A DNA stretch of 64,000 nucleotides from Candidatus Rokubacteria bacterium GWA2_70_23. Its GTDB lineage: Bacteria; Methylomirabilota; Methylomirabilia; Rokubacteriales; CSP1-6. The DNA is taken from NCBI GenBank assembly GCA_001788395.1, contig MGBT01000221.1, forward strand, positions 16,896-80,895. Reading direction: 5' to 3'. The notes beneath the pieces are model-generated. The model saw only the letters and a program-made list of their open reading frames with translations. It searched no databases and was not told the origin of the DNA. The position numbers and the translations under genes were made by a program. This document shows, one piece after another, positions 2,462 through 54,657 of this stretch. The first letter of the stretch is position 1; the number at the start of each line of letters is the position of its first letter.

Positions 2462-3356
2462 GCCCGTGGCCGAGAGCGCGCTCCGGCTGCCCGCTCGTCC
2501 CGCATCCCGGTCCGGAGTCTGGATGACGCTCGCCCGCTTCTGCCGCAAGAAGCCTCTCGGCGCCGTCGGCGGGCTCGTCATGCTGCTCATCCTGGTCACG
2601 GCGATCTTCGCCGAGGTGCTGGCCACCCACGATCCCATCATGACGGAGGCGGCGGGGACGCTGGGGCGCCCCAGCTGGGAGCACTGGCTCGGCTCGGACC
2701 ACCTGGGACGCGACATCTACTCCCGGATCGTCCACGGCGCCCGCGTGTCGCTCATCGTCGGCGTGGCGTCCACGCTGCTCGGCTCCGTGCTGGGCGGTAT
2801 CGTCGGCCTGCTCTCCGGCTACGTCGGCGGCAAGACGGACCTCATCGTCCAGCGGGTGCTGGACATCCTGCAGGGTCTGCCGCTCCTGGTGCTCGCGCTG
2901 GTCATCTCGGCGGTGCTGAGTCCGTCGATCCAGAACGTGGTCATCGCGATCTCGGTCCCGATCATCCCGCGGGCCGCCCGCGTCATCCGCTCGAGCGTGC
3001 TCTCCATCCGGGAGATGCAGTACGTGGAGGCGGCGCGGGCCCTGGGGGTCGCACATCTCCGGATCGCCTTCCGCCACATCCTGCCCAACACCATGGGACC
3101 GTTCATCGTGCTCGGCACGGCCCAGCTCGGCAGCGCCATCCTGGTGGAGGCCACGCTCTCCTTCCTCGGGCTCGGCGTGCCCGAGCCCTACCCGTCCTGG
3201 GGGCGCATGCTCTCGGTCTCGGCCGCCGAGTACGCCCAGAAGGCGCCCCACCTGGTCCTTTTCCCGGGCCTCGCCATCAGCCTGGCCGTGTTCGGCTCCA
3301 ACTTGCTCGGGGATGCGCTCAGGGACACGCTCGACCCGCGCCTGCGCGGCGCCTGA
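2451..3356 (+). CDS. ABC transporter permease (DppC/OppC-like)
   Basis: 301 aa; overlaps previous stop; hydrophobic TM profile of DppC family; true start may be a downstream internal Met. Confidence 0.8.
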   Translation: MPAEPVAESALRLPARPASRSGVWMTLARFCRKKPLGAVGGLVMLLILVTAIFAEVLATHDPIMTEAAGTLGRPSWEHWLGSDHLGRDIYSRIVHGARVSLIVGVASTLLGSVLGGIVGLLSGYVGGKTDLIVQRVLDILQGLPLLVLALVISAVLSPSIQNVVIAISVPIIPRAARVIRSSVLSIREMQYVEAARALGVAHLRIAFRHILPNTMGPFIVLGTAQLGSAILVEATLSFLGLGVPEPYPSWGRMLSVSAAEYAQKAPHLVLFPGLAISLAVFGSNLLGDALRDTLDPRLRGA

Positions 3357-3379
3357 GCGCGGCGAGAGTGAAGGGCCGC

Positions 3380-3700
3380 GCGCGAGGACCCGGCGGGCGC
3401 GGGCGTGGCGACTGCCCGGGCGGCCGCCTGGAGTCACCGCGGCGAAGATCGGGCGAAGGGAGTCGGGCAGCGGGAGCTAGCGGCGGGCGTGGGCGTGGCG
3501 AAGCCCAGGTGCCCACGCCTGGTGAATGAAGGCGGGCGCGGCGAAGCCCGGGCGCCCATCCGGGATGACGGCGCCAGAGATCGCGTGAGGTGAGTCGAGG
3601 GGCGTGAACAGCCGGCGGGGATGGGCGGGCGCGGCGGGTGACCGCAACTGAAGGCAGGGGAATGAACTAGCGGGCGCACGGATCCGGCGGGCGCGGGCGG
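3380..3700. repeat. Degenerate tandem array (4-5 copies) of about 40-bp GC-rich palindromic unit GGCGGGCGYGGGCGTGGCGA..CCCRGG..GCCCRCGCCTGG
   Basis: Units aligned by eye (e.g. ggcgggcgcgggcgtggcgactgcccgggcggccgcctgg vs ggcgggcgtgggcgtggcgaagcccaggtgcccacgcctgg); intergenic between dppC-like and amidase. Confidence 0.5.
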
Positions 3701-3741
3701 GCCTACGGCCCGGGTGCCCGCGCCGGGTCAAGGAGGATCCC

Positions 3742-5157
3742 ATGGCCTCGGATGAGCTCTGCTGGATGCCGGCTGCCGAGATGGCGGCCGCGATCAGGCG
3801 CAAGAAGCTGTCGCCGGTGGAGGTGATGCGCGCGGTGCTGGCGCGGATCGAGCGCGTCAACCCGCGGCTCAACGCCATCGTCACCCTCACGGCCGACCAG
3901 GCCATGAAGGACGCCCGCGCGGCGGAGCGCGCCCTGATGAAGAAGGGAGCGACGCTCGGCGCGCTGCACGGGTTGCCCTTTTCCACCAAGGACCTCGTCG
4001 TCACGAAAGGGATCCGCACCACGTTCGGCACCCGGCTCTATGCCGACAACGTGCCCACCGAGGACGCCCCCATGGTGGAGCGGCTCAAGAGGGCCGGGGC
4101 CATCCAGCTCGGCAAGACCAACACGCCGGCTTTCGGCTGGATCGGCGCCACCCACAACCTGGTCTTCGGCATCACACGCAACCCGTGGAATCTCGATCGC
4201 ACGCCCGGCGGCTCGAGCGGCGGGGCGAGCGCCGCGGTGGCGGCCGGACTCGGCCCGCTGGCCATCGGCACCGACGGCGGCGGCTCGATCCGCATCCCCG
4301 CCTCCTGCGCCGGCATCTTCGGCCACAAGCCCTCCTTCGGGCGCATTCCCGTCTACCCGCCGAGCGCTGCGTGGAGCCTCTCGCACATCGGCCCCATGAC
4401 CCGCACCGTCACCGACGCGGCGCTCATGATGAACGCCTGCGCCGGTCCCGACGAGCGGGATCAGTTCTCGCTGCCCGGGGACGGGACCGACTACGTGAAG
4501 GCCCTCAAGGGGCCGCTCACGGGGCTCCGCGTGGCGTGGTCCGCGAACCTGGGCTTCGCCAAGGTCGTGGACCCCGAGGTGTTGGCCGGGTGCGAGAAAG
4601 CGGCGAAGCGCTTCCGCGACTTCGGCTGCCGGCTGGAGACGGTGAACCCCGGCTGGCCGACGCCGAAGGACTGCTGGGAGGCGATCTTCTGTGGCGGCAT
4701 CGGGACGCGCATGGCGCCCTACATGGCCGAGCGGCGCGCGGACATCGATCCGGGCCTGGCGGAGATCATCGACGAGACGCTCACCTGGGGACCCACGAAG
4801 TACGTCCAGGCCTGGTTCGACCGCCTGGCCTGGAACGACCATGTGCGGCGCTTCTTCGAGAAGTACGATCTCCTGCTGACGCCGACCATCGCCACGCGGC
4901 CGTTCAAGGTGGGTGTGGACAACCCCACCGAGATCGCGGGGAAGCCCGTCGAGCGCTACGACTGGATCCCGTTCACCTTCCCGTTCAACATGACCGGCAA
5001 CCCCGGTGCCTCGGTGCCCTGCGGCTTCACCTCGGACGGCCTGCCGATCGGGCTGCAGATCGTGGGGCGGCGCTTTGCCGACGCCCTCGTCCTGCGGGCC
5101 TCGGCGGCCTTCGAGACGGCGCAGCCCTGGGCCCACGCGAAACCGCCGATCGACTAG
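3742..5157 (+). CDS. Amidase (amidase-signature family, GatA-like)
   Basis: 471 aa; GGSSGGASAAVAAGLGPLAIGTDGGGSIRIPAS amidase signature; RBS AAGGAGG upstream. Confidence 0.85.
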   Translation: MASDELCWMPAAEMAAAIRRKKLSPVEVMRAVLARIERVNPRLNAIVTLTADQAMKDARAAERALMKKGATLGALHGLPFSTKDLVVTKGIRTTFGTRLYADNVPTEDAPMVERLKRAGAIQLGKTNTPAFGWIGATHNLVFGITRNPWNLDRTPGGSSGGASAAVAAGLGPLAIGTDGGGSIRIPASCAGIFGHKPSFGRIPVYPPSAAWSLSHIGPMTRTVTDAALMMNACAGPDERDQFSLPGDGTDYVKALKGPLTGLRVAWSANLGFAKVVDPEVLAGCEKAAKRFRDFGCRLETVNPGWPTPKDCWEAIFCGGIGTRMAPYMAERRADIDPGLAEIIDETLTWGPTKYVQAWFDRLAWNDHVRRFFEKYDLLLTPTIATRPFKVGVDNPTEIAGKPVERYDWIPFTFPFNMTGNPGASVPCGFTSDGLPIGLQIVGRRFADALVLRASAAFETAQPWAHAKPPID

Positions 5158-48485: not shown

Positions 48486-49547
48486 ATGCCGGCGCGGGGT
48501 TACGATGCCATCGTGGTCGGAGCCAGCTTCGCGGGGCTCGGCGTGGCGCGCCAGCTCCGCGGCGACGTCTTGCTCCTCGACCGCAACGAGGTGGGCGCCG
48601 TCCAGACCTCCGCGTGTGGCACGCCGCTCTGGGTCCCCCAGACGCTCGGGGTGGCGGACAGCGTGCTCCAGGTTCACGAGCGCCTGACGGTTCGCACCCC
48701 GGGGCGGACGGTGACCTACGACCTGTCGGCCGTGCCCTTCTGCACCTTCGACTACAAGGCGTTCTGCCAGGGGCTGCTCGGCCAGTGCCGCGCCCGCTTT
48801 CTCCGGACGCCGGTGACCGGGGTCGAGGAGGGGGCCGTGATCACCGGCGAGGGGCGGTTCAGCGCGCCGGTGGTGATCGACTGCTCCGGGTGGCGCCGCG
48901 CCGTGGTCAACGGCGGCGAGGCGGAGCGCCCGCGCGGCGGCGCCTACTCCTTCGGCCTCGAGGCGCGCGCCGATCTCACGGGGGAGGGGCTCTCCTTCTG
49001 GCTCGACAAGGGGCTGATCCACCGCGGGCTGGGCTGGATCTTCCCGGCCGGGGCGCAGAGCCTCGTCGGCCTGGGCTCCTACGCGGGCGCCTCCAAGCTC
49101 AAGCCTGCCCTGGAGCGCTTCCTGTCCGACCACGGCGTGGCCGCCACCAGCTTCCACGGCACCTACTTCCCGAACCGGCTCCTGCGGCCCACCGTCGGGC
49201 GCCTGTTCGCCGTGGGGGACGCCGCCGGGCAGTGCATGCCGTTCACCGCCGAGGGCATCCGCCCGGCACTCTACTTCGGTGGAGAGTGCGGCAAGATCGT
49301 GCAGGAGGTGATCGAGGGCCGGCTGACCCTGGCCGACGGCCTCGAGCGCTACCGCCGGCTCGTGGGACGCTACCGGCGCGCGTACCGCGTCCTCTGGCTG
49401 GCGCAGCTGTTCGCGATGCACGCCCCGACGCGCTGGTTCGCGGCCTTCACGAGCCTGGCCGCGCGGCATCCGGTGCTTCCCCGCTGGTGGCCCCGCTACG
49501 CGCGCTTCGGCCGCATGGACCCGGCGCCCGTGGCCATCGTGACATGA
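48486..49547 (+). CDS. FAD-dependent oxidoreductase, geranylgeranyl-reductase-like family
   Basis: YDAIVVGASFAGLGVA dinucleotide fold; size about 350 aa; start chosen at MPARGYD. Confidence 0.65.
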   Translation: MPARGYDAIVVGASFAGLGVARQLRGDVLLLDRNEVGAVQTSACGTPLWVPQTLGVADSVLQVHERLTVRTPGRTVTYDLSAVPFCTFDYKAFCQGLLGQCRARFLRTPVTGVEEGAVITGEGRFSAPVVIDCSGWRRAVVNGGEAERPRGGAYSFGLEARADLTGEGLSFWLDKGLIHRGLGWIFPAGAQSLVGLGSYAGASKLKPALERFLSDHGVAATSFHGTYFPNRLLRPTVGRLFAVGDAAGQCMPFTAEGIRPALYFGGECGKIVQEVIEGRLTLADGLERYRRLVGRYRRAYRVLWLAQLFAMHAPTRWFAAFTSLAARHPVLPRWWPRYARFGRMDPAPVAIVT

Positions 49548-49583
49548 GGGCCCGCACGGGGGCCGCGCGCCGGCCATGAGGCG

Positions 49584-50306
49584 ATGCGCGGCCTGATCTC
49601 CCGCTACCGCTGGACGATCGTCGTTGCCGGCTCCGTCTTCCTCGCGGCGCTCTCTCTGTGGCTGCTCCTCGCCCGCAACCTCGCCGGCTACAGCCTTCTC
49701 CTCCGCCTCTACCAGGACAAGGAGTTCCTCAAGCGGACGCTCCGGGAGTGGGGAATCCTGGCGCCCGTGATCTTCATGATCATCCAGGCGCTGCAGGTGA
49801 TCATCTCTCCCATCCCCGGCGAGGCCACCGGCTTCCTCGGGGGCTATCTCTTCGGGGTGTGGCTCGGCTTCATCTACTCCACCATCGGGCTGGCGGCGGG
49901 CTCGGTGGCGGCCTTCGGCGTGGGCCGCTGGCTCGGCGCGCGCTTCGTCCGCAACCTGGTGAGCAAGGCGATGTGGGACCGCCTCGGGTTCATCGTCGAG
50001 GCCGAAGGGGCGATCCTCTGCTTCATCATCTACCTCATTCCCGGCCTGCCGAAGGACATGGTCTCCTACCTCTTCGGGATCAGCCCGATGCCCATGTGGG
50101 TGTTCGCGGTGGTCTCGGGGCTCGGCCGGATGCCCGGCACCTGGGTCCTGTCGGCCCAGGGCTCCCAGACGGCGGCCGGCCAGTACGTCCAGGTGGTGCT
50201 CATCTCCGCCATTGCCGTGGCCGTGGCCCTGCCGCTCTACTACTACCGCCACCGCATCGTCGAGTGGTTCGGGTCGCGCAAGGGTCAGGGGTCGGGCAAA
50301 CCCTGA
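49584..50306 (+). CDS. DedA/TVP38/TMEM64 family membrane protein
   Basis: ...PIPGEATGFLGGYLFG... signature; about 5 TM; 240 aa. Confidence 0.8.
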   Translation: MRGLISRYRWTIVVAGSVFLAALSLWLLLARNLAGYSLLLRLYQDKEFLKRTLREWGILAPVIFMIIQALQVIISPIPGEATGFLGGYLFGVWLGFIYSTIGLAAGSVAAFGVGRWLGARFVRNLVSKAMWDRLGFIVEAEGAILCFIIYLIPGLPKDMVSYLFGISPMPMWVFAVVSGLGRMPGTWVLSAQGSQTAAGQYVQVVLISAIAVAVALPLYYYRHRIVEWFGSRKGQGSGKP

Positions 50307-50336
50307 TCCCGCAGCAACCCGCTAACTGAGCAATCT

Positions 50337-50794
50337 GTGGTGGCGGACGAGTACCGGGACGGTAACGTCCCGGCGGCGATGGACAACCTGCCGCTCATTC
50401 AGCGGGGCTTTGCGAGCTTGCCGGCGACGGTGACGGAGTATTACTTCCGGGCCGACAGCGCGTGCTATGACGCGCGGGTGTTGAAGTGGCTGGCCAATGC
50501 GCAGCGGGCGGGGGGGGGCCGGCGGGGCCGATCGGGTTCACGATCAGTGCGGACATGACGGAGCCGCTGCACAAGCTGTGCGTGGCGGTGCCGGAGGCGG
50601 AGTGGACGCTGGTGGAGGAGCGCGGGGACGAGACGGTGATGGGGGCGGAGGTGGTGTTCACGCTCGCGTGGCGGATCCTCACGCATGCGGGGCGCCTCGT
50701 GCTGCGCATCAGCGAGGAGGCCGAGAGCGTCGTCGGACTGGTCGCCGCCCGCACGCGCCTGGCCGGCCTGCGGCCCCGCATCGCCTCGGGCTGA
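50337..50794 (+). mobile_element. Truncated, frameshifted gene remnant, possibly a DDE transposase fragment (IS4/IS1380-like RADS..Y motif); frameshift at G10 tract about 50506-50517
   Basis: Two overlapping ORFs (50337..50558, 50486..50794) joined across a poly-G run; ...YYFRADSACYDARVL... resembles the second catalytic-Asp motif of DDE transposases. Confidence 0.35.
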
Positions 50795-51040
50795 GCCCGC
50801 TCGATTCGGATTCACCCGGGTCATCCGCGGCGCCGTGGGCGCCCGCGCGGGAGTGTCTCTCCTCCTAGCCGTCTCTACCGTCGGATGCGCGGGCCCTGCC
50901 CTCGTCGGCCAACTCGCACGCTCCGCAGTGTTCCTGAGGGTGTTGTCGCCAGCGCCAGGGGGTACTCCCAGGTGATTCACGGGCGCTTCGGCGGCCGCTG
51001 CAAAAACCCTGCCGCGGGATTAGGGGGCCGATCTCGCGGG

Positions 51041-51069
51041 TTGACAGCCAAGCCCCCAGCGGGTAAACT
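51041..51069 (+). promoter_or_regulatory. Sigma70-like promoter TTGACA-17-TAAACT upstream of aro leader
   Basis: Hexamers read directly; about 190 nt upstream of the leader ORF. Confidence 0.35.
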
Positions 51070-51267
51070 CGCCGCAGGTGGCCGATAACCAAGGTCGCCG
51101 AGAGTGCGTATCGTGTCGAGCAGTCCCGCGGGCGGGCAGCCCGTGGCAGCGCGGGGAGCCTTTGGCGCAGCGAGGCCGGGCGATGAACCGCGAACCTCCG
51201 CTCCGATGTTGGGGCGGGAATCCCCGGCCCTTGGGCCGTGGGAGGATGTCAAAAAGGAGGCAGGCCA

Positions 51268-51357
51268 GTGGCACGGAAGGGGAACGGGATCGCGCAGGGC
51301 TGGCGGTTCTACTTTTATTACTTTCCCTCCGTCCGCCTACTGGCTTCCCTGAGCTAG
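51268..51357 (+). CDS. Candidate attenuator leader peptide (29 codons): VARKGNGIAQGWRFYFYYFPSVRLLASLS
   Basis: RBS AAGGAGG (51254-51260) 7 nt before GTG; seven aromatic codons in eight (W-R-F-Y-F-Y-Y-F, 51301-51324); too short for the ORF track; lies upstream of DAHP synthase genes. Confidence 0.55.
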   Translation: MARKGNGIAQGWRFYFYYFPSVRLLASLS

Positions 51358-51416
51358 CACCCAGGAGCCACGGGCGGACGAGCCGCCGGCCCGTGGCGAT
51401 CGAGATCGAGCCCAAC

Positions 51417-51451
51417 GCCGCGGGCAATACACCCGCGGCGTTTTTCTTTTT
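51417..51451 (+). terminator. Intrinsic terminator/attenuator: GCCGCGGG-caataca-CCCGCGGC followed by GTTTTTCTTTTT
   Basis: 8-bp perfect GC stem, 7-nt loop, T-rich tract; sits about 130 nt upstream of the aroF-like start. Confidence 0.65.
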
Positions 51452-51583
51452 CCACGGGCCGAGGGCGGCGGCCGCGGATGACAACAGGCGAGATCGGGCG
51501 AGGGAGCAACCGGGTGCGGTTTTCCGGCGGGGATGGGCGGGCGACAGCCCGGGTGCCCATCCCAGGTCAAAGAAAGGCACAGC

Positions 51584-52600
51584 ATGATCATCATCATGAA
51601 GCCGGGATCGACCGAGGCGGATATCGACGACGTCTGTCGCCGGGTGGCAGACTTCGGGTTCAGGACCCATCTCTCCCGGGGCGAGGTGCGGACCATCATC
51701 GGCGTGGTGGGCGACGATCGCGCGAAGGAACAGCTCCTCGCGCTGCAGGCGCTGGACGCCGTCGAAGGCGTGGTCCGGATCCTCCAGCCCTTCAAGCTCG
51801 CGAGCCGCGAGGCCCATCCCGAGAGCACCCAGTTCAAGATCGGCGACGTGCCGGTCGGCGGCAGGCAGATCGTCGTCATGGCGGGCCCCTGCGCCGTGGA
51901 GTCCCGGCCGCAGCTCCTGGCGGTGGCCGAGGCGGTCAAGGAAGGCGGGGCCCACATCCTCCGCGGCGGGGCCTTCAAGCCGCGCACCTCGCCGTACGCC
52001 TTCCAGGGCCTCGAGGAGGAGGGGCTCGCGCTGTTGTCCGAGGCGAGCCGCAAGACGGGGCTGCCGGTCGTCACCGAGGTGATGGAGCCCGACAAGGTGG
52101 AGGTGGTCGCCGAGCACGCCGACGTGCTGCAGATCGGCGCGCGCAACGTCCAGAACTTCTCGCTCCTCAAGCGCGTGGCCGAGTGCGGCAAGCCCGTGCT
52201 CCTCAAGCGCGGCATGTCCACCTCCATCCAGGAGTGGCTCCTCTCCGCCGAGTACGTGCTGGCGGGGGGCAACCCCAACGTGATCCTCTGCGAGCGGGGC
52301 ATCCGCACCTTCGAGACCGCGACGCGTTACACCCTCGACCTGAACGCCATCCCTGTCGTCAAGAAGCTCTCTCACCTGCCGGTGTTCGTGGACCCGAGCC
52401 ACGGGACGGGGCACTGGGAGTACGTGGCCGCCATGGCCCGGGCGGGGCTCGCCGCCGGCGCCGACGGGCTCATCATCGAGGTGCACAACAAGCCGGAGGA
52501 GGCGCTCTCGGACGGGCCGCAGTCCCTCAAGCCCGACCGCTTCGCTGCGCTCATGCGCGAGCTTCGCCCCCTGGCGGAGGTCCTGGGGAGGTCGCTATGA
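51584..52600 (+). CDS. 3-deoxy-7-phosphoheptulonate (DAHP) synthase, type I-beta with N-terminal ACT/ferredoxin-like regulatory domain, copy 1
   Basis: [32 protein letters not shown] motifs; 338 aa; N-terminal about 80-aa extra domain. Confidence 0.9.
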
Positions 52601-53613
52601 TCATCGTGCTCAAGTCGGGAGTCACGGACGCGGACGTCGACCATGTGTGTCAGCGCGTGGTCGAGCTCGGATACCAGCCCCACACCATCCGCGGCGAGTT
52701 CAAGACCATCGTCGCCGCGGTGGGGGAGGAGCGCGGCAAGCCCGATCTCCGGCTGCTCGAAGCGCTGGAGACGGTGGAAGCCGTCATGCCGGTGCAGCAG
52801 CCGTTCAAGCTCGCGAGCCGGGAGATCCGGCCGGAGCCGACCGAGGTGCGGGTCAACGGCGTGACCGTGGGCGGCCAGCGCGTGATCGTGATGGCGGGGC
52901 CCTGCTCGGTGGAGTCGGAGCCGCAGGTCCTCGAGGTGGCCGAGGCCGTCAAGCAGGCCGGCGCCAGCATCCTCCGGGGCGGCGCCTACAAGCCCCGCAC
53001 CTCGCCCTACGCCTTCCAGGGGCTCAAGGAGCAGGGGCTCAGGTACCTCAAGGAGGCGAAGAAGCGCACGGGGCTCCCCGTCGTCACCGAGGTGCTGGAG
53101 ACGGAGAGCGTGGAGCTCGTGGCGGAGTACGCCGACATCCTGCAGATCGGCGCGCGCAACATCCAGAACTTCACCCTCCTGCGGCGCGTGGGAGAGATGG
53201 GCAAGCCCGTGCTCCTCAAGCGCGGCATGGCGACGAGCATCCAGGAGTTCCTCCTCTCGGCCGAGTACATCCTGTCGGCCGGCAACCCCAACGTGATCCT
53301 CTGCGAGCGGGGCATCCGCACGTTCGAGACCGCGACGCGCTTCACCCTCGATCTCAACGCCGTGCCGGTGCTCAAGAAGCTCTCCCACCTGCCGGTGGTC
53401 GTGGACCCGTCCCATGGCACGGGCCACTGGGACCTGGTGGCGCCCATGGCCAAGGGCTCCGTGGCCTGTGGCGCGGACGGGCTCATCATCGAGGTACACC
53501 CGCGACCGGAGGAGGCGCTGTCGGACGGTCCGCAGTCCCTCAAGCCGTCCAAGTTCGCCCAGCTCATGCGTGAACTGCGCCCGGTGGCGGAGGCCGTCGG
53601 CCGGACCCTGTAG
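52597..53613 (+). CDS. DAHP synthase, type I-beta with N-terminal regulatory domain, copy 2 (tandem paralog)
   Basis: ATGA overlap with copy 1; [26 protein letters not shown]; 338 aa. Confidence 0.9.
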
Positions 53614-53667
53614 GGGGCTGGCGGGGTAGGCCCGGCCCCGGGCCCCCCCGTGGCATAATCACGGGGT

Positions 53668-54657
53668 ATGAAGATCTGGCTGCCGGCGGATCCCTCGCGG
53701 CGGGCCTTGCTCGTCGCCCTCGTGTGCTCGGTGCTCCTCCACGTGCTGGTGGCCGCCTCGGTGTACCTGGCTGGCGCCTTCGGGCCCAAGATCGTCGCCA
53801 CGCGCGGTGAGCCGCTCTTCGTCGACATCGCCCCCGACCGGCCCGAGGAGCGTGCGCCGCGCGGCAACCCCGCGCGTCCGCCCGGCCCGGGAACGCCCGC
53901 GCCCGAGCGCCGCGCTCCCGAGCCTCCGGCCCCCAAGATGGCGGAAGTGAAGCCCAAGGCCGCCGAGGCCCCCAGGAGGGCTCCGCCCACGGCGCCGGCG
54001 CCGCCACAGGTAGCGAAGGCCTCCCCGCCCGCCGCGCCAGAGACTCCCGCGCCGCGCACCCAGGAGCCGGCGCCCGCTCCCGGGCCTCAGGCCCGCGCTC
54101 CCGAGCGCCAGACTCTCCCCTCCCAGCCTCAGCCAGCCGAGCCTTCCACGACCGAGGGTGCCGCCGGCCCTTCGCGCCCCGCGGCACCGTCGGAGCCGGC
54201 GGGGCAGGTGCTCGCGCGGACCAAGTCGGGGCTCGACCTGCCGGCCGCCATGCTGAGAAGGCCCGGGGGGGGCGGAGGGCTCAAGGACGGGCGCGGCGGC
54301 GTCGAGGGGGAGCCCATTCCGCTGGACACCCAGGATCCGAAGTACGTCGACTACTTCGGCCAGCTCCGCGAGCGGATCAAGTCCAAGTGGAGCTACCCGC
54401 GCGAGGCGGGCGAGCGCGGCATCGGCGGGCAGCTCCTCATCGAGTTCCACATCGCCAAGGACGGGCGCCTGCAGCTCCTGGAGCTCCGGCGCTCCTCGGG
54501 GGTGGAGATCCTCGACGACTACGCGCTGAACGCGGTCCGCCTGGCCCAGCCCTTCCCGCCCGTGCCCGACAACCTCGCCAAGCAGGTCCTCGCCGTCAAC
54601 GGCCTCTTCAACTACCAGATCGTCGGCAATAGCTTCGTCAATCAGTTCCTCCGCTAG
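53668..54657 (+). CDS. TonB-family energy transducer (N-terminal TM anchor, Pro/Ala-rich spacer, TonB C-terminal domain)
   Basis: [23 protein letters not shown] anchor; long PAPAP-rich linker; C-terminal ...[26 protein letters not shown]... TonB_C-like. Confidence 0.7.

Follow-up and report, generated by a model that had tools for sequence, protein, structure and literature searches.

Leader region and DAHP synthase genes

The analysed window is a stretch of 64,000 nucleotides with a G+C content of 71% from Candidatus Rokubacteria bacterium GWA2_70_23 (contig MGBT01000221.1, positions 16,896 to 80,895 of the forward strand), a member of the Methylomirabilota (Rokubacteria, NC10), which is a largely uncultivated phylum of soil and groundwater. 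Two tandem DAHP synthase genes of this window are preceded by a short open reading frame (ORF) with a run of aromatic codons and by a canonical intrinsic terminator, and this leader, a candidate transcription attenuator, is described here. The features of the locus are as follows, in window coordinates.

51041-51069, + strand: sigma-70-type promoter of the leader transcript, TTGACA-17 nt-TAAACT, the sole promoter-like site in 50000-53000
51076-51250, + strand: lineage-specific insert of ~175 nt in the 5' untranslated region (UTR), between the promoter and the leader Shine-Dalgarno sequence (~30-55 nt in relatives)
51254-51260, + strand: Shine-Dalgarno sequence AAGGAGG, 7 nt 5' of the GTG start, read from the sequence
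51268-51357, + strand: leader ORF of 29 codons, VARKGNGIAQGWRFYFYYFPSVRLLASLS*, with GTG at 51268 and TAG at 51355-51357
51301-51324, + strand: putative regulatory codon run W-R-F-Y-F-Y-Y-F, with 1 Trp, 3 Phe and 3 Tyr (7/8 aromatic)
51584-52600, + strand: DAHP synthase 1, type I-beta, with an N-terminal ferredoxin-like domain (PF18152 and PF00793; NF006421, 501.7 bits)
52597-53613, + strand: DAHP synthase 2, a paralogue 69% identical to DAHP synthase 1 (NF006421, 505.6 bits)

The ribosome-binding site, the GTG start, the 29-codon ORF and the run of seven aromatic codons in eight, which had all been reported in an initial annotation made from the sequence alone, were recovered at these positions, and the GGAGG and GTG elements are conserved in the subgroup to which the window belongs. 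The stretch at 51301-51324 is the only one in the 64 kb, over both strands and all frames, that holds at least five aromatic codons in a stop-free stretch of eight codons, and when the 700 nt upstream were dinucleotide-shuffled 2000 times the aromatic codons per eight reached at most 5, with a mean of 2.75, so the aromatic codon run is beyond chance. The tandem DAHP synthase ORFs share an ATGA, in which the stop of the first meets the start of the second. The Pfam scan, which covered DAHP synthase 1, gave matches to PF00793 DAHP_synth_1 (E = 3.8e-79) and PF18152 DAHP_snth_FXD (E = 1.6e-22), and the NCBIfam comparison, which covered both enzymes, placed both above the cutoff of NF006421 (residues 1-337) and TIGR01361, in agreement with the type I-beta pair that had been proposed to lie downstream of the leader.

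Conservation of the leader among relatives

One genome per species was scanned with DAHP synthase 1, yielding 80 loci (cited below by number, L002 and so on), nearly all of them from Candidatus Methylomirabilota (Rokubacteria and NC10/Methylomirabilis), the best being 87-88% identical. In ~66 of these 80 orthologous loci, the 700 nt before the first DAHP synthase contain a mini-ORF with 4-7 aromatic codons in eight, and the element was not found in the loci from Firmicutes and Nitrospirota among them. The runs differ in their residues and maintain the aromatic class and the frame, such as WRSYFYF; WRFYFFYF; FGFFFYYF; FFGYYFSY; and YYFWFSF/YYFWFSFP. A U-run follows the leader stop codon by 50-95 nt in the relatives, and a hairpin with a U-run, as expected of a terminator, was detected for 61 of the 66 leaders. 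A covariance model built from 38 leaders gave a single match in the window, at 51301-51452 with 114 bits, and a single copy per locus, invariably located 5' of the gene; no extra copies were detected by this model in the window or in the flanks of the 80 loci. The conservation of the mini-ORF, which the initial annotation had proposed to look for in related genomes, is therefore present, and the aromatic run, the terminator and all four pairings that it listed are kept across the phylum.

Alternative pairings in the leader RNA

The fold of 51260-51455 has a z-score of -5.05 against shuffles, and five successive RNA segments (S1-S5), each of which would be able to pair with its neighbour, were delimited in this region together with an upstream extension arm.

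51297-51309, + strand: extension arm, codons G-W-R-F, predicted to pair with 51379-51391 in the free RNA (minimum free energy (MFE) fold of the free leader)
51331-51347, + strand: S1, 3' part of the leader ORF, GUCCGCCU..CUGGCUUCC, partner S2 or S0 (the Shine-Dalgarno/start region, about 51251-51285)
51361-51380, + strand: S2, CCAGGAGCCACGGGCGGACG, partner S1 or S3
51385-51398, + strand: S3, ..GCCCGUGGCG, partner S2 (relay hairpin) or S4 (antiterminator)
51414-51425, + strand: S4, 5' arm of the terminator, alternative partner S3
51432-51451, + strand: S5, 3' arm of the terminator (51432-51442) with the U-tract (51441-51451), from the terminator scan

The terminator consists of an 11-bp stem (51414-51442, 9 G-C pairs) with a 7-nt loop, followed by TTTCTTTTTC, and is the sole such site in 50000-53000. 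This terminator and the three complementarities that had been derived by hand in the initial annotation, 51330-51337 with 51373-51380, 51368-51375 with 51389-51396, and 51389-51398 with 51416-51425 (one G.U), were all confirmed. The predicted helix energies are -43.5 kcal/mol for S0:S1, -29.8 for S1:S2, -23.3 for S2:S3, -21.7 for S3:S4 and -22.2 for S4:S5, the last two values indicating that antiterminator and terminator are nearly isoenergetic. The pairing of 51297-51309 with 51379-51391 lengthens the S1:S2 helix across part of S3, the combined helix reaching -51.8 kcal/mol, and in L011 a synonymous change of CGG to CGA in the extension arm is matched, by eye, by a change of C to U in the partner.

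Two classes of leader were observed. In class I, which includes the window, the relay hairpin S2:S3 sits between S1 and the terminator S4:S5, and the S2:S3 stem is almost identical in sequence to the terminator stem, so that S3 can pair with S4. In class II, which comprises the Methylomirabilis-type leaders and some from Rokubacteria, a single terminator has a 5' arm, GGGCCACGGGGCAGAC, that is complementary over its entire length to S1 (GUCUGCCC...GGCUC). For the pair counts, 41 class I leaders were aligned with MAFFT without fitting to any structure, and slid pairings served as controls. The terminating fold (S2:S3 and S4:S5) is 95.2% paired against 37-55% in the slid controls, and the alternative fold (S1:S2 and S3:S4) is 91.7% paired against 41-50%. 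Within the alternative fold, S1:S2 is 90-95% paired over the 41 leaders, with CG/UA and UG/CG/UA variation, and S3:S4, which overlaps the 5' arm of the terminator, is 90% paired. Covariation was observed for S2:S3 at alignment columns 202-231 (GC 24, AU 15, GU 2) and for S4:S5 at columns 255-280 (GC 32, CG 9), compensatory or wobble changes were seen in each helix, and RNAalifold independently gives S2:S3 with S4:S5. Two further items were set aside during the counting: a pair at columns 165/202 that resembled three-way covariation was inconsistent outside the subgroup of the window and was dropped, and column-based pair counts on the class II alignment were abandoned, as a gap of 1-2 nt in S2 shifts lineages out of register.

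Predicted switching of the proposed attenuator

Together these features suggest, with a probability of about 0.85, that the element is a ribosome-mediated (leader-peptide) transcription attenuator controlling the two-gene DAHP synthase operon. The comparative evidence hence supports the central claim of the initial annotation, namely an aromatic leader with alternative hairpins and a terminator, and the antitermination logic that it had left unresolved resolves into a relay of the his type, the details of which are put forward with less assurance and as somewhat better than an even guess. The sensed signal would be how fully tRNA-Phe and tRNA-Tyr, and less so tRNA-Trp, are charged. Transcription would begin at the 51041-51069 promoter, and we infer that the leader ORF is translated as the RNA polymerase advances. 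When aromatic aminoacyl-tRNAs are scarce, the ribosome would stall at 51301-51324, just upstream of S1, leaving S1 to pair with S2, so that the free S3 would take the emerging S4, S5 would remain partnerless and the polymerase would read through into the DAHP synthases. When they are plentiful, the ribosome would reach the stop codon and cover S1, upon which S2:S3 and S4:S5 would form and transcription would end at the U-tract 51441-51451. In an untranslated leader, either the Shine-Dalgarno/start region would sequester S1, or 51297-51309:51379-51391 would lengthen the S1:S2 helix across part of S3; the terminator would form in either case, making the default state off. The expected physiological response would be a higher expression of the operon under scarcity of charged aromatic tRNAs.

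The spacing of the segments is consistent with this proposal. S1 starts exactly 6 nt past the last aromatic codon in 37 of the 41 leaders, and the median distance from the stop codon to the S2:S3 stem is 11 nt in these class I leaders, a spacing which indicates that a ribosome at the stop codon covers S1 and not the relay hairpin. The folding of the full-length leader with the region of a stalled or of a terminating ribosome masked, as the initial annotation had advised, gave the terminator in every case and so did not decide the antitermination logic; truncated transcripts were used instead, ending at 51431 (S4 out, S5 not made), with the 5' limit of the free RNA varied according to the ribosome position. 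Free RNA from 51331 or further upstream (stalled ribosome) folds into S1:S2 with 13-14 bp and S3:S4 with 10 bp, and free RNA from 51358-51366 (ribosome at the stop codon) folds into S2:S3 with 13 bp and leaves S4 unpaired. Formation of the antiterminator is thus predicted to depend on the ribosome position, and an alternative to the terminator exists in the conserved S3:S4 helix of the truncated folds. A proxy that proved useful in class II and in many class I leaders is the pairing probability of the terminator 5' arm. In class II its value is 0.84 for a stalled ribosome and 0.43 for one at the stop codon, and shuffling of S1 gives 0.64. Of 58 leaders folded as free RNA, 52 form the terminator.

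Several observations weigh against this reading. The covariation is modest and the helices are almost invariant, a limitation to be expected because each segment has two partners, and sequences of close kin may exceed shuffles even without a structure. The separation of the stalled and at-stop states in the window holds only for a leading edge of the ribosome up to 51366, and a footprint reaching 51368 or beyond would weaken S2:S3 and favour S3:S4. The equilibrium folds of the full-length leader always make the terminator whichever region is masked, and with a stalled ribosome the terminator state is still ~9 kcal/mol better, which implies that the switch must be kinetic, with the order of folding during transcription presumably deciding the outcome; the switch of classical attenuators is likewise kinetic. 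The pairing-probability proxy gives no separation in the subgroup of the window (0.82 stalled against 0.81 at the stop codon). The S0:S1 helix, the analogue of A:B in the his attenuator, is predicted in just 28 of the 58 free-RNA MFE folds, and in the MFE fold of the window itself S1 pairs with S2, aided by the 51297-51309 extension. Finally, the locus in the window also carries the 175-nt insert in its 5' UTR and a 130-nt spacer after the terminator.

Occurrence in Desulfobacterales and before other genes

Metagenomes were scanned for the S1/S2 core pattern, and ~25 of the 120 loci obtained are real leaders, the remainder being mostly chance matches. The scan recovered more leaders of Rokubacteria and also lower-GC contigs with the core, an aromatic ORF and tandem U-run hairpins. 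The genes that follow these leaders vary: L146 has an aroFGH-type DAHP synthase, 83-84% identical to that of Desulfococcus, and then aroB and a second DAHP synthase; L141 has an ADH synthase (NF005556, 319 bits); and L106, L145 and L172 have a Liv-type periplasmic binding protein with an ABC ATPase. ADH synthase is an alternative first enzyme of aromatic biosynthesis, and the leader before its gene lends support to the view that aromatic synthesis in the bacteria concerned is fed by this route.

Desulfococcus multivorans DSM 2059, whose genome is complete (CP015381.1), has the leader MNPYAGSVYYFWFYFYGTARLPGVR, at about 2206099-2206292, between a TTGACA promoter and a DAHP synthase-aroB-pheA operon (attenuator at 1284-1477 of L202), and an equivalent leader was observed in Desulfonema ishimotonii (L204), with the gene order DAHP synthase-aroB-DAHP synthase. 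The leaders of Desulfobacterales and L146 are highly aromatic, with runs such as YYFWFYFY and FFYFWFYFFY, and in Desulfobacterales both successive hairpins carry U-runs and form tandem terminators. The model built on Rokubacteria matches the Desulfobacterales leaders along the whole of the model with 36-60 bits (E 1e-7 to 1e-13). The first DAHP synthase is of the aroFGH type in both operons, and that of Desulfococcus multivorans is non-orthologous. Depending on the lineage (L014, L020, L146 and L141 compared with the window), the GUCUGCC conserved in S1 encodes V-C-P, R-L-P or G-L-P, and this reading in several frames indicates selection on the RNA and not on the peptide.

On these matches, a single predicted RNA family is common to Methylomirabilota and the sulfate-reducing Desulfobacterales. 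Its position before four unrelated genes with one theme provides strong indirect evidence for a response to aromatic amino acids, and the arrangement suggests that the Liv-type transporter may be an aromatic amino-acid importer and that the loci may form a multi-locus 'aromatic' regulon. For aromatic amino-acid biosynthesis in Methylomirabilota, the element would be the first handle on its regulation. As a putative cis-regulatory RNA family that crosses phyla, it is a candidate for Rfam and for use in annotation, since its occurrence before non-homologous genes means that it can flag genes of aromatic metabolism. Its presence in the cultured Desulfococcus multivorans offers an experimental system.

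Alternative explanations

The mini-ORF might instead code for a small aromatic or hydrophobic peptide that has a function and a terminator of its own, the DAHP synthases being transcribed independently and without attenuation. Its conservation and good Shine-Dalgarno sequence would suit such a gene, and the 130-nt gap from the terminator to the start codon in the window could house another promoter; but the promoter scan gave no promoter-like site between 51452 and 51583, and the distance from the U-run to the start codon is merely 18-50 nt in most relatives. Beyond the aromatic run, moreover, the peptide is kept only where the RNA is, with conserved nucleotides falling in different frames, and a peptide gene would leave unexplained both the complementarity of S1 (inside the ORF) to S2 and of S3 to S4 and the placement of the element before four unrelated genes of aromatic metabolism, so that this explanation appears highly improbable. 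A further alternative is an arrest of the TnaC type, in which the nascent leader peptide would halt the ribosome in response to free aromatic amino acids and not to scarce charged tRNA. Trp, Phe and Tyr abound in the peptide, and its C-terminal half is partly conserved, but the peptide sequence is not kept beyond the aromatic content, and the conserved C-terminal part reflects a constraint on the RNA, being read in several frames. An arrest at abundance would also free S1 and switch on a biosynthetic operon at a time when its product abounds, which is physiologically the wrong sign and leaves such an arrest scarcely probable.

A switch of the RNA itself that binds a ligand or protein (a riboswitch, T-box-like or TRAP-like element) and senses aromatic amino acids or uncharged tRNA, with the ORF being incidental, is very unlikely, if a little less so. 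It would account for the GUCUGCC and GCC(R)CGGGC(R)GAC core, which is kept in its nucleotides over two phyla and several frames beyond the needs of pairing, although the presence of two alternative partners for each segment could explain this strong conservation as well. Against such a switch, Rfam, with T-box and the known riboswitches included, gave no match at E values up to 10 in the region of the leader or at the gathering score in relatives; the aromatic codon run, with its fixed frame and start codon, is alone in varying in nucleotides while keeping its meaning; and the distances from the run and the stop codon to S1 and S2 suit a ribosome footprint. The ribosome-mediated attenuator is the preferred explanation. 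In addition to attenuation, a second function is conceivable for the relay hairpin or the terminated leader RNA, either as a protein or ligand site providing a second input or as a trans-acting small RNA coordinating an 'aromatic ribulon', an idea raised because GUCUGCC...GCC(R)CGGGC(R)GAC...GCCCG(Y)GGC is near-invariant over two phyla, different frames and four unrelated genes; it is given a small chance, and a precedent for a trans-acting small RNA is rnTrpL of Sinorhizobium (PMC6614838).

Relation to known attenuators

The trp, pheA, pheST and his attenuators share the same principle as that proposed here; the family is uncatalogued, its principle is known (his, trp, aroR), and no new mechanistic principle beyond those attenuators arises from it. 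Matches to the leader families of Rfam (Phe_leader, Trp_leader, His_leader, leu/phe leader), to T-box or to riboswitches were absent from 49000-54000 at E values up to 10, and none of the leader, T-box and riboswitch families reached the gathering score in seven related loci. No prior description in Rokubacteria, Desulfococcus or Deltaproteobacteria was found in the literature. The view of the initial annotation that the attenuator is likely undescribed accordingly stands for the family, with neither an Rfam match nor a paper found, and falls for the kind of element, for which there is a precedent in Corynebacterium glutamicum. Its further view, that such an attenuator is unusual in a high-GC non-enteric genome and on a type I-beta pair, has to give way, as the element occurs phylum-wide and also, in Desulfobacterales, before other genes.

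According to Neshat et al. 2014 (J Biotechnol 190:55), as summarised in PMC11802643 and PMC4046766, the aroR leader of C. glutamicum, with Phe-Tyr-Phe, attenuates the aroF DAHP synthase operon, and transcription rises when ribosomes stall for want of Phe. The aroR-aroF attenuator resembles the present case in having a short Phe/Tyr leader before a DAHP synthase operon in a high-GC non-enteric host. It differs in its phylum and in having a Phe-Tyr-Phe triplet only, whereas the present leaders carry 5-8 aromatic codons in a run, their family extends over both Methylomirabilota and Desulfobacterales, and in the window the leader precedes two tandem type I-beta enzymes. The likeness is put forward as a functional analogy.

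In the enteric his attenuator, A:B, C:D and E:F terminate, B:C and D:E read through, and termination is the default of the untranslated leader (PMC4046918). The same relay logic would apply here, with S0:S1, S2:S3 and S4:S5 opposing S1:S2 and S3:S4; but the codons are aromatic in place of His and the leader does not match the Rfam His_leader, the middle hairpin of Desulfobacterales is itself a U-run terminator, and the Methylomirabilis-type leaders are without a relay hairpin. The enteric leaders of pheA (pheL), pheST and trp (trpL) are alike in their runs of aromatic codons, their antiterminator/terminator alternative and their aromatic-pathway genes (PMC3082878, PMC11802643). They respond to one amino acid each and precede terminal-branch or synthetase genes, whereas the present leader has mixed Phe, Tyr and Trp codons and would control the common first step. 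A further likeness was observed to the leaderless polycysteine short ORFs of mycobacteria (the 'Cys ribulon'; bioRxiv 10.1101/834739), in which one type of sensory ORF precedes several unrelated loci of a single pathway; many class I leaders similarly begin ~13 nt after the -10 box and are nearly leaderless. The 'Cys ribulon' elements act on translation by sequestering the ribosome-binding site, whereas the present element has a canonical intrinsic terminator.

Promoters, spacers and neighbouring genes

The 51041-51069 promoter aligns with a conserved CTTGACAG...CGTA(A/G)ACTCGCC that lies directly 5' of the leader in L002, L004, L005 and L012, and the transcription start would be near 51076; the MAFFT alignment had put the promoter of the window under TTGGGG...TTGGGCC, which is a misalignment, the true homologue being 51041-51069. 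Most class I leaders (such as L035, L039 and L043) show, at alignment columns of about 18-70, a TTGAC(A/G)-17 nt-TAGAGT promoter whose -10 element ends ~13 nt before the ATG, without a Shine-Dalgarno sequence, so their sensory ORF is probably translated from a leaderless or near-leaderless mRNA. The insert in the 5' UTR of the window holds, as inverted repeats at 51126-51147, a third copy of the CCGCGGGC...GCCCGUGG hairpin, which could in principle cross-pair with S2-S5.

The spacer between the terminator and the DAHP synthase start codon in the window (51452-51583) includes a GGGATGGGC...GCCCATCCC hairpin. The close relatives L002 and L007 have 230-345 nt between the terminator and the DAHP synthase, with 1-2 copies of a ~45-nt element, GGAGTGCGGGGGCCATnTCGGGGCCCCCGCAGCTGAAGAGC, which may be a small repeat or an insertion resembling a miniature inverted-repeat transposable element. 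A membrane-protein gene (49584-50306), ending in ...LPLYYYRHRIV, is the conserved 5' neighbour of the leader in relatives; in the window ~730 additional nt separate it from the promoter, and a 102-amino-acid ORF lies inside this interval at 50486-50794. In L076, an ORF of 349 amino acids on the minus strand (2831-3880), which by eye looks like an IS110-family transposase, lies between the attenuator (2497-2626) and the DAHP synthase (4001).

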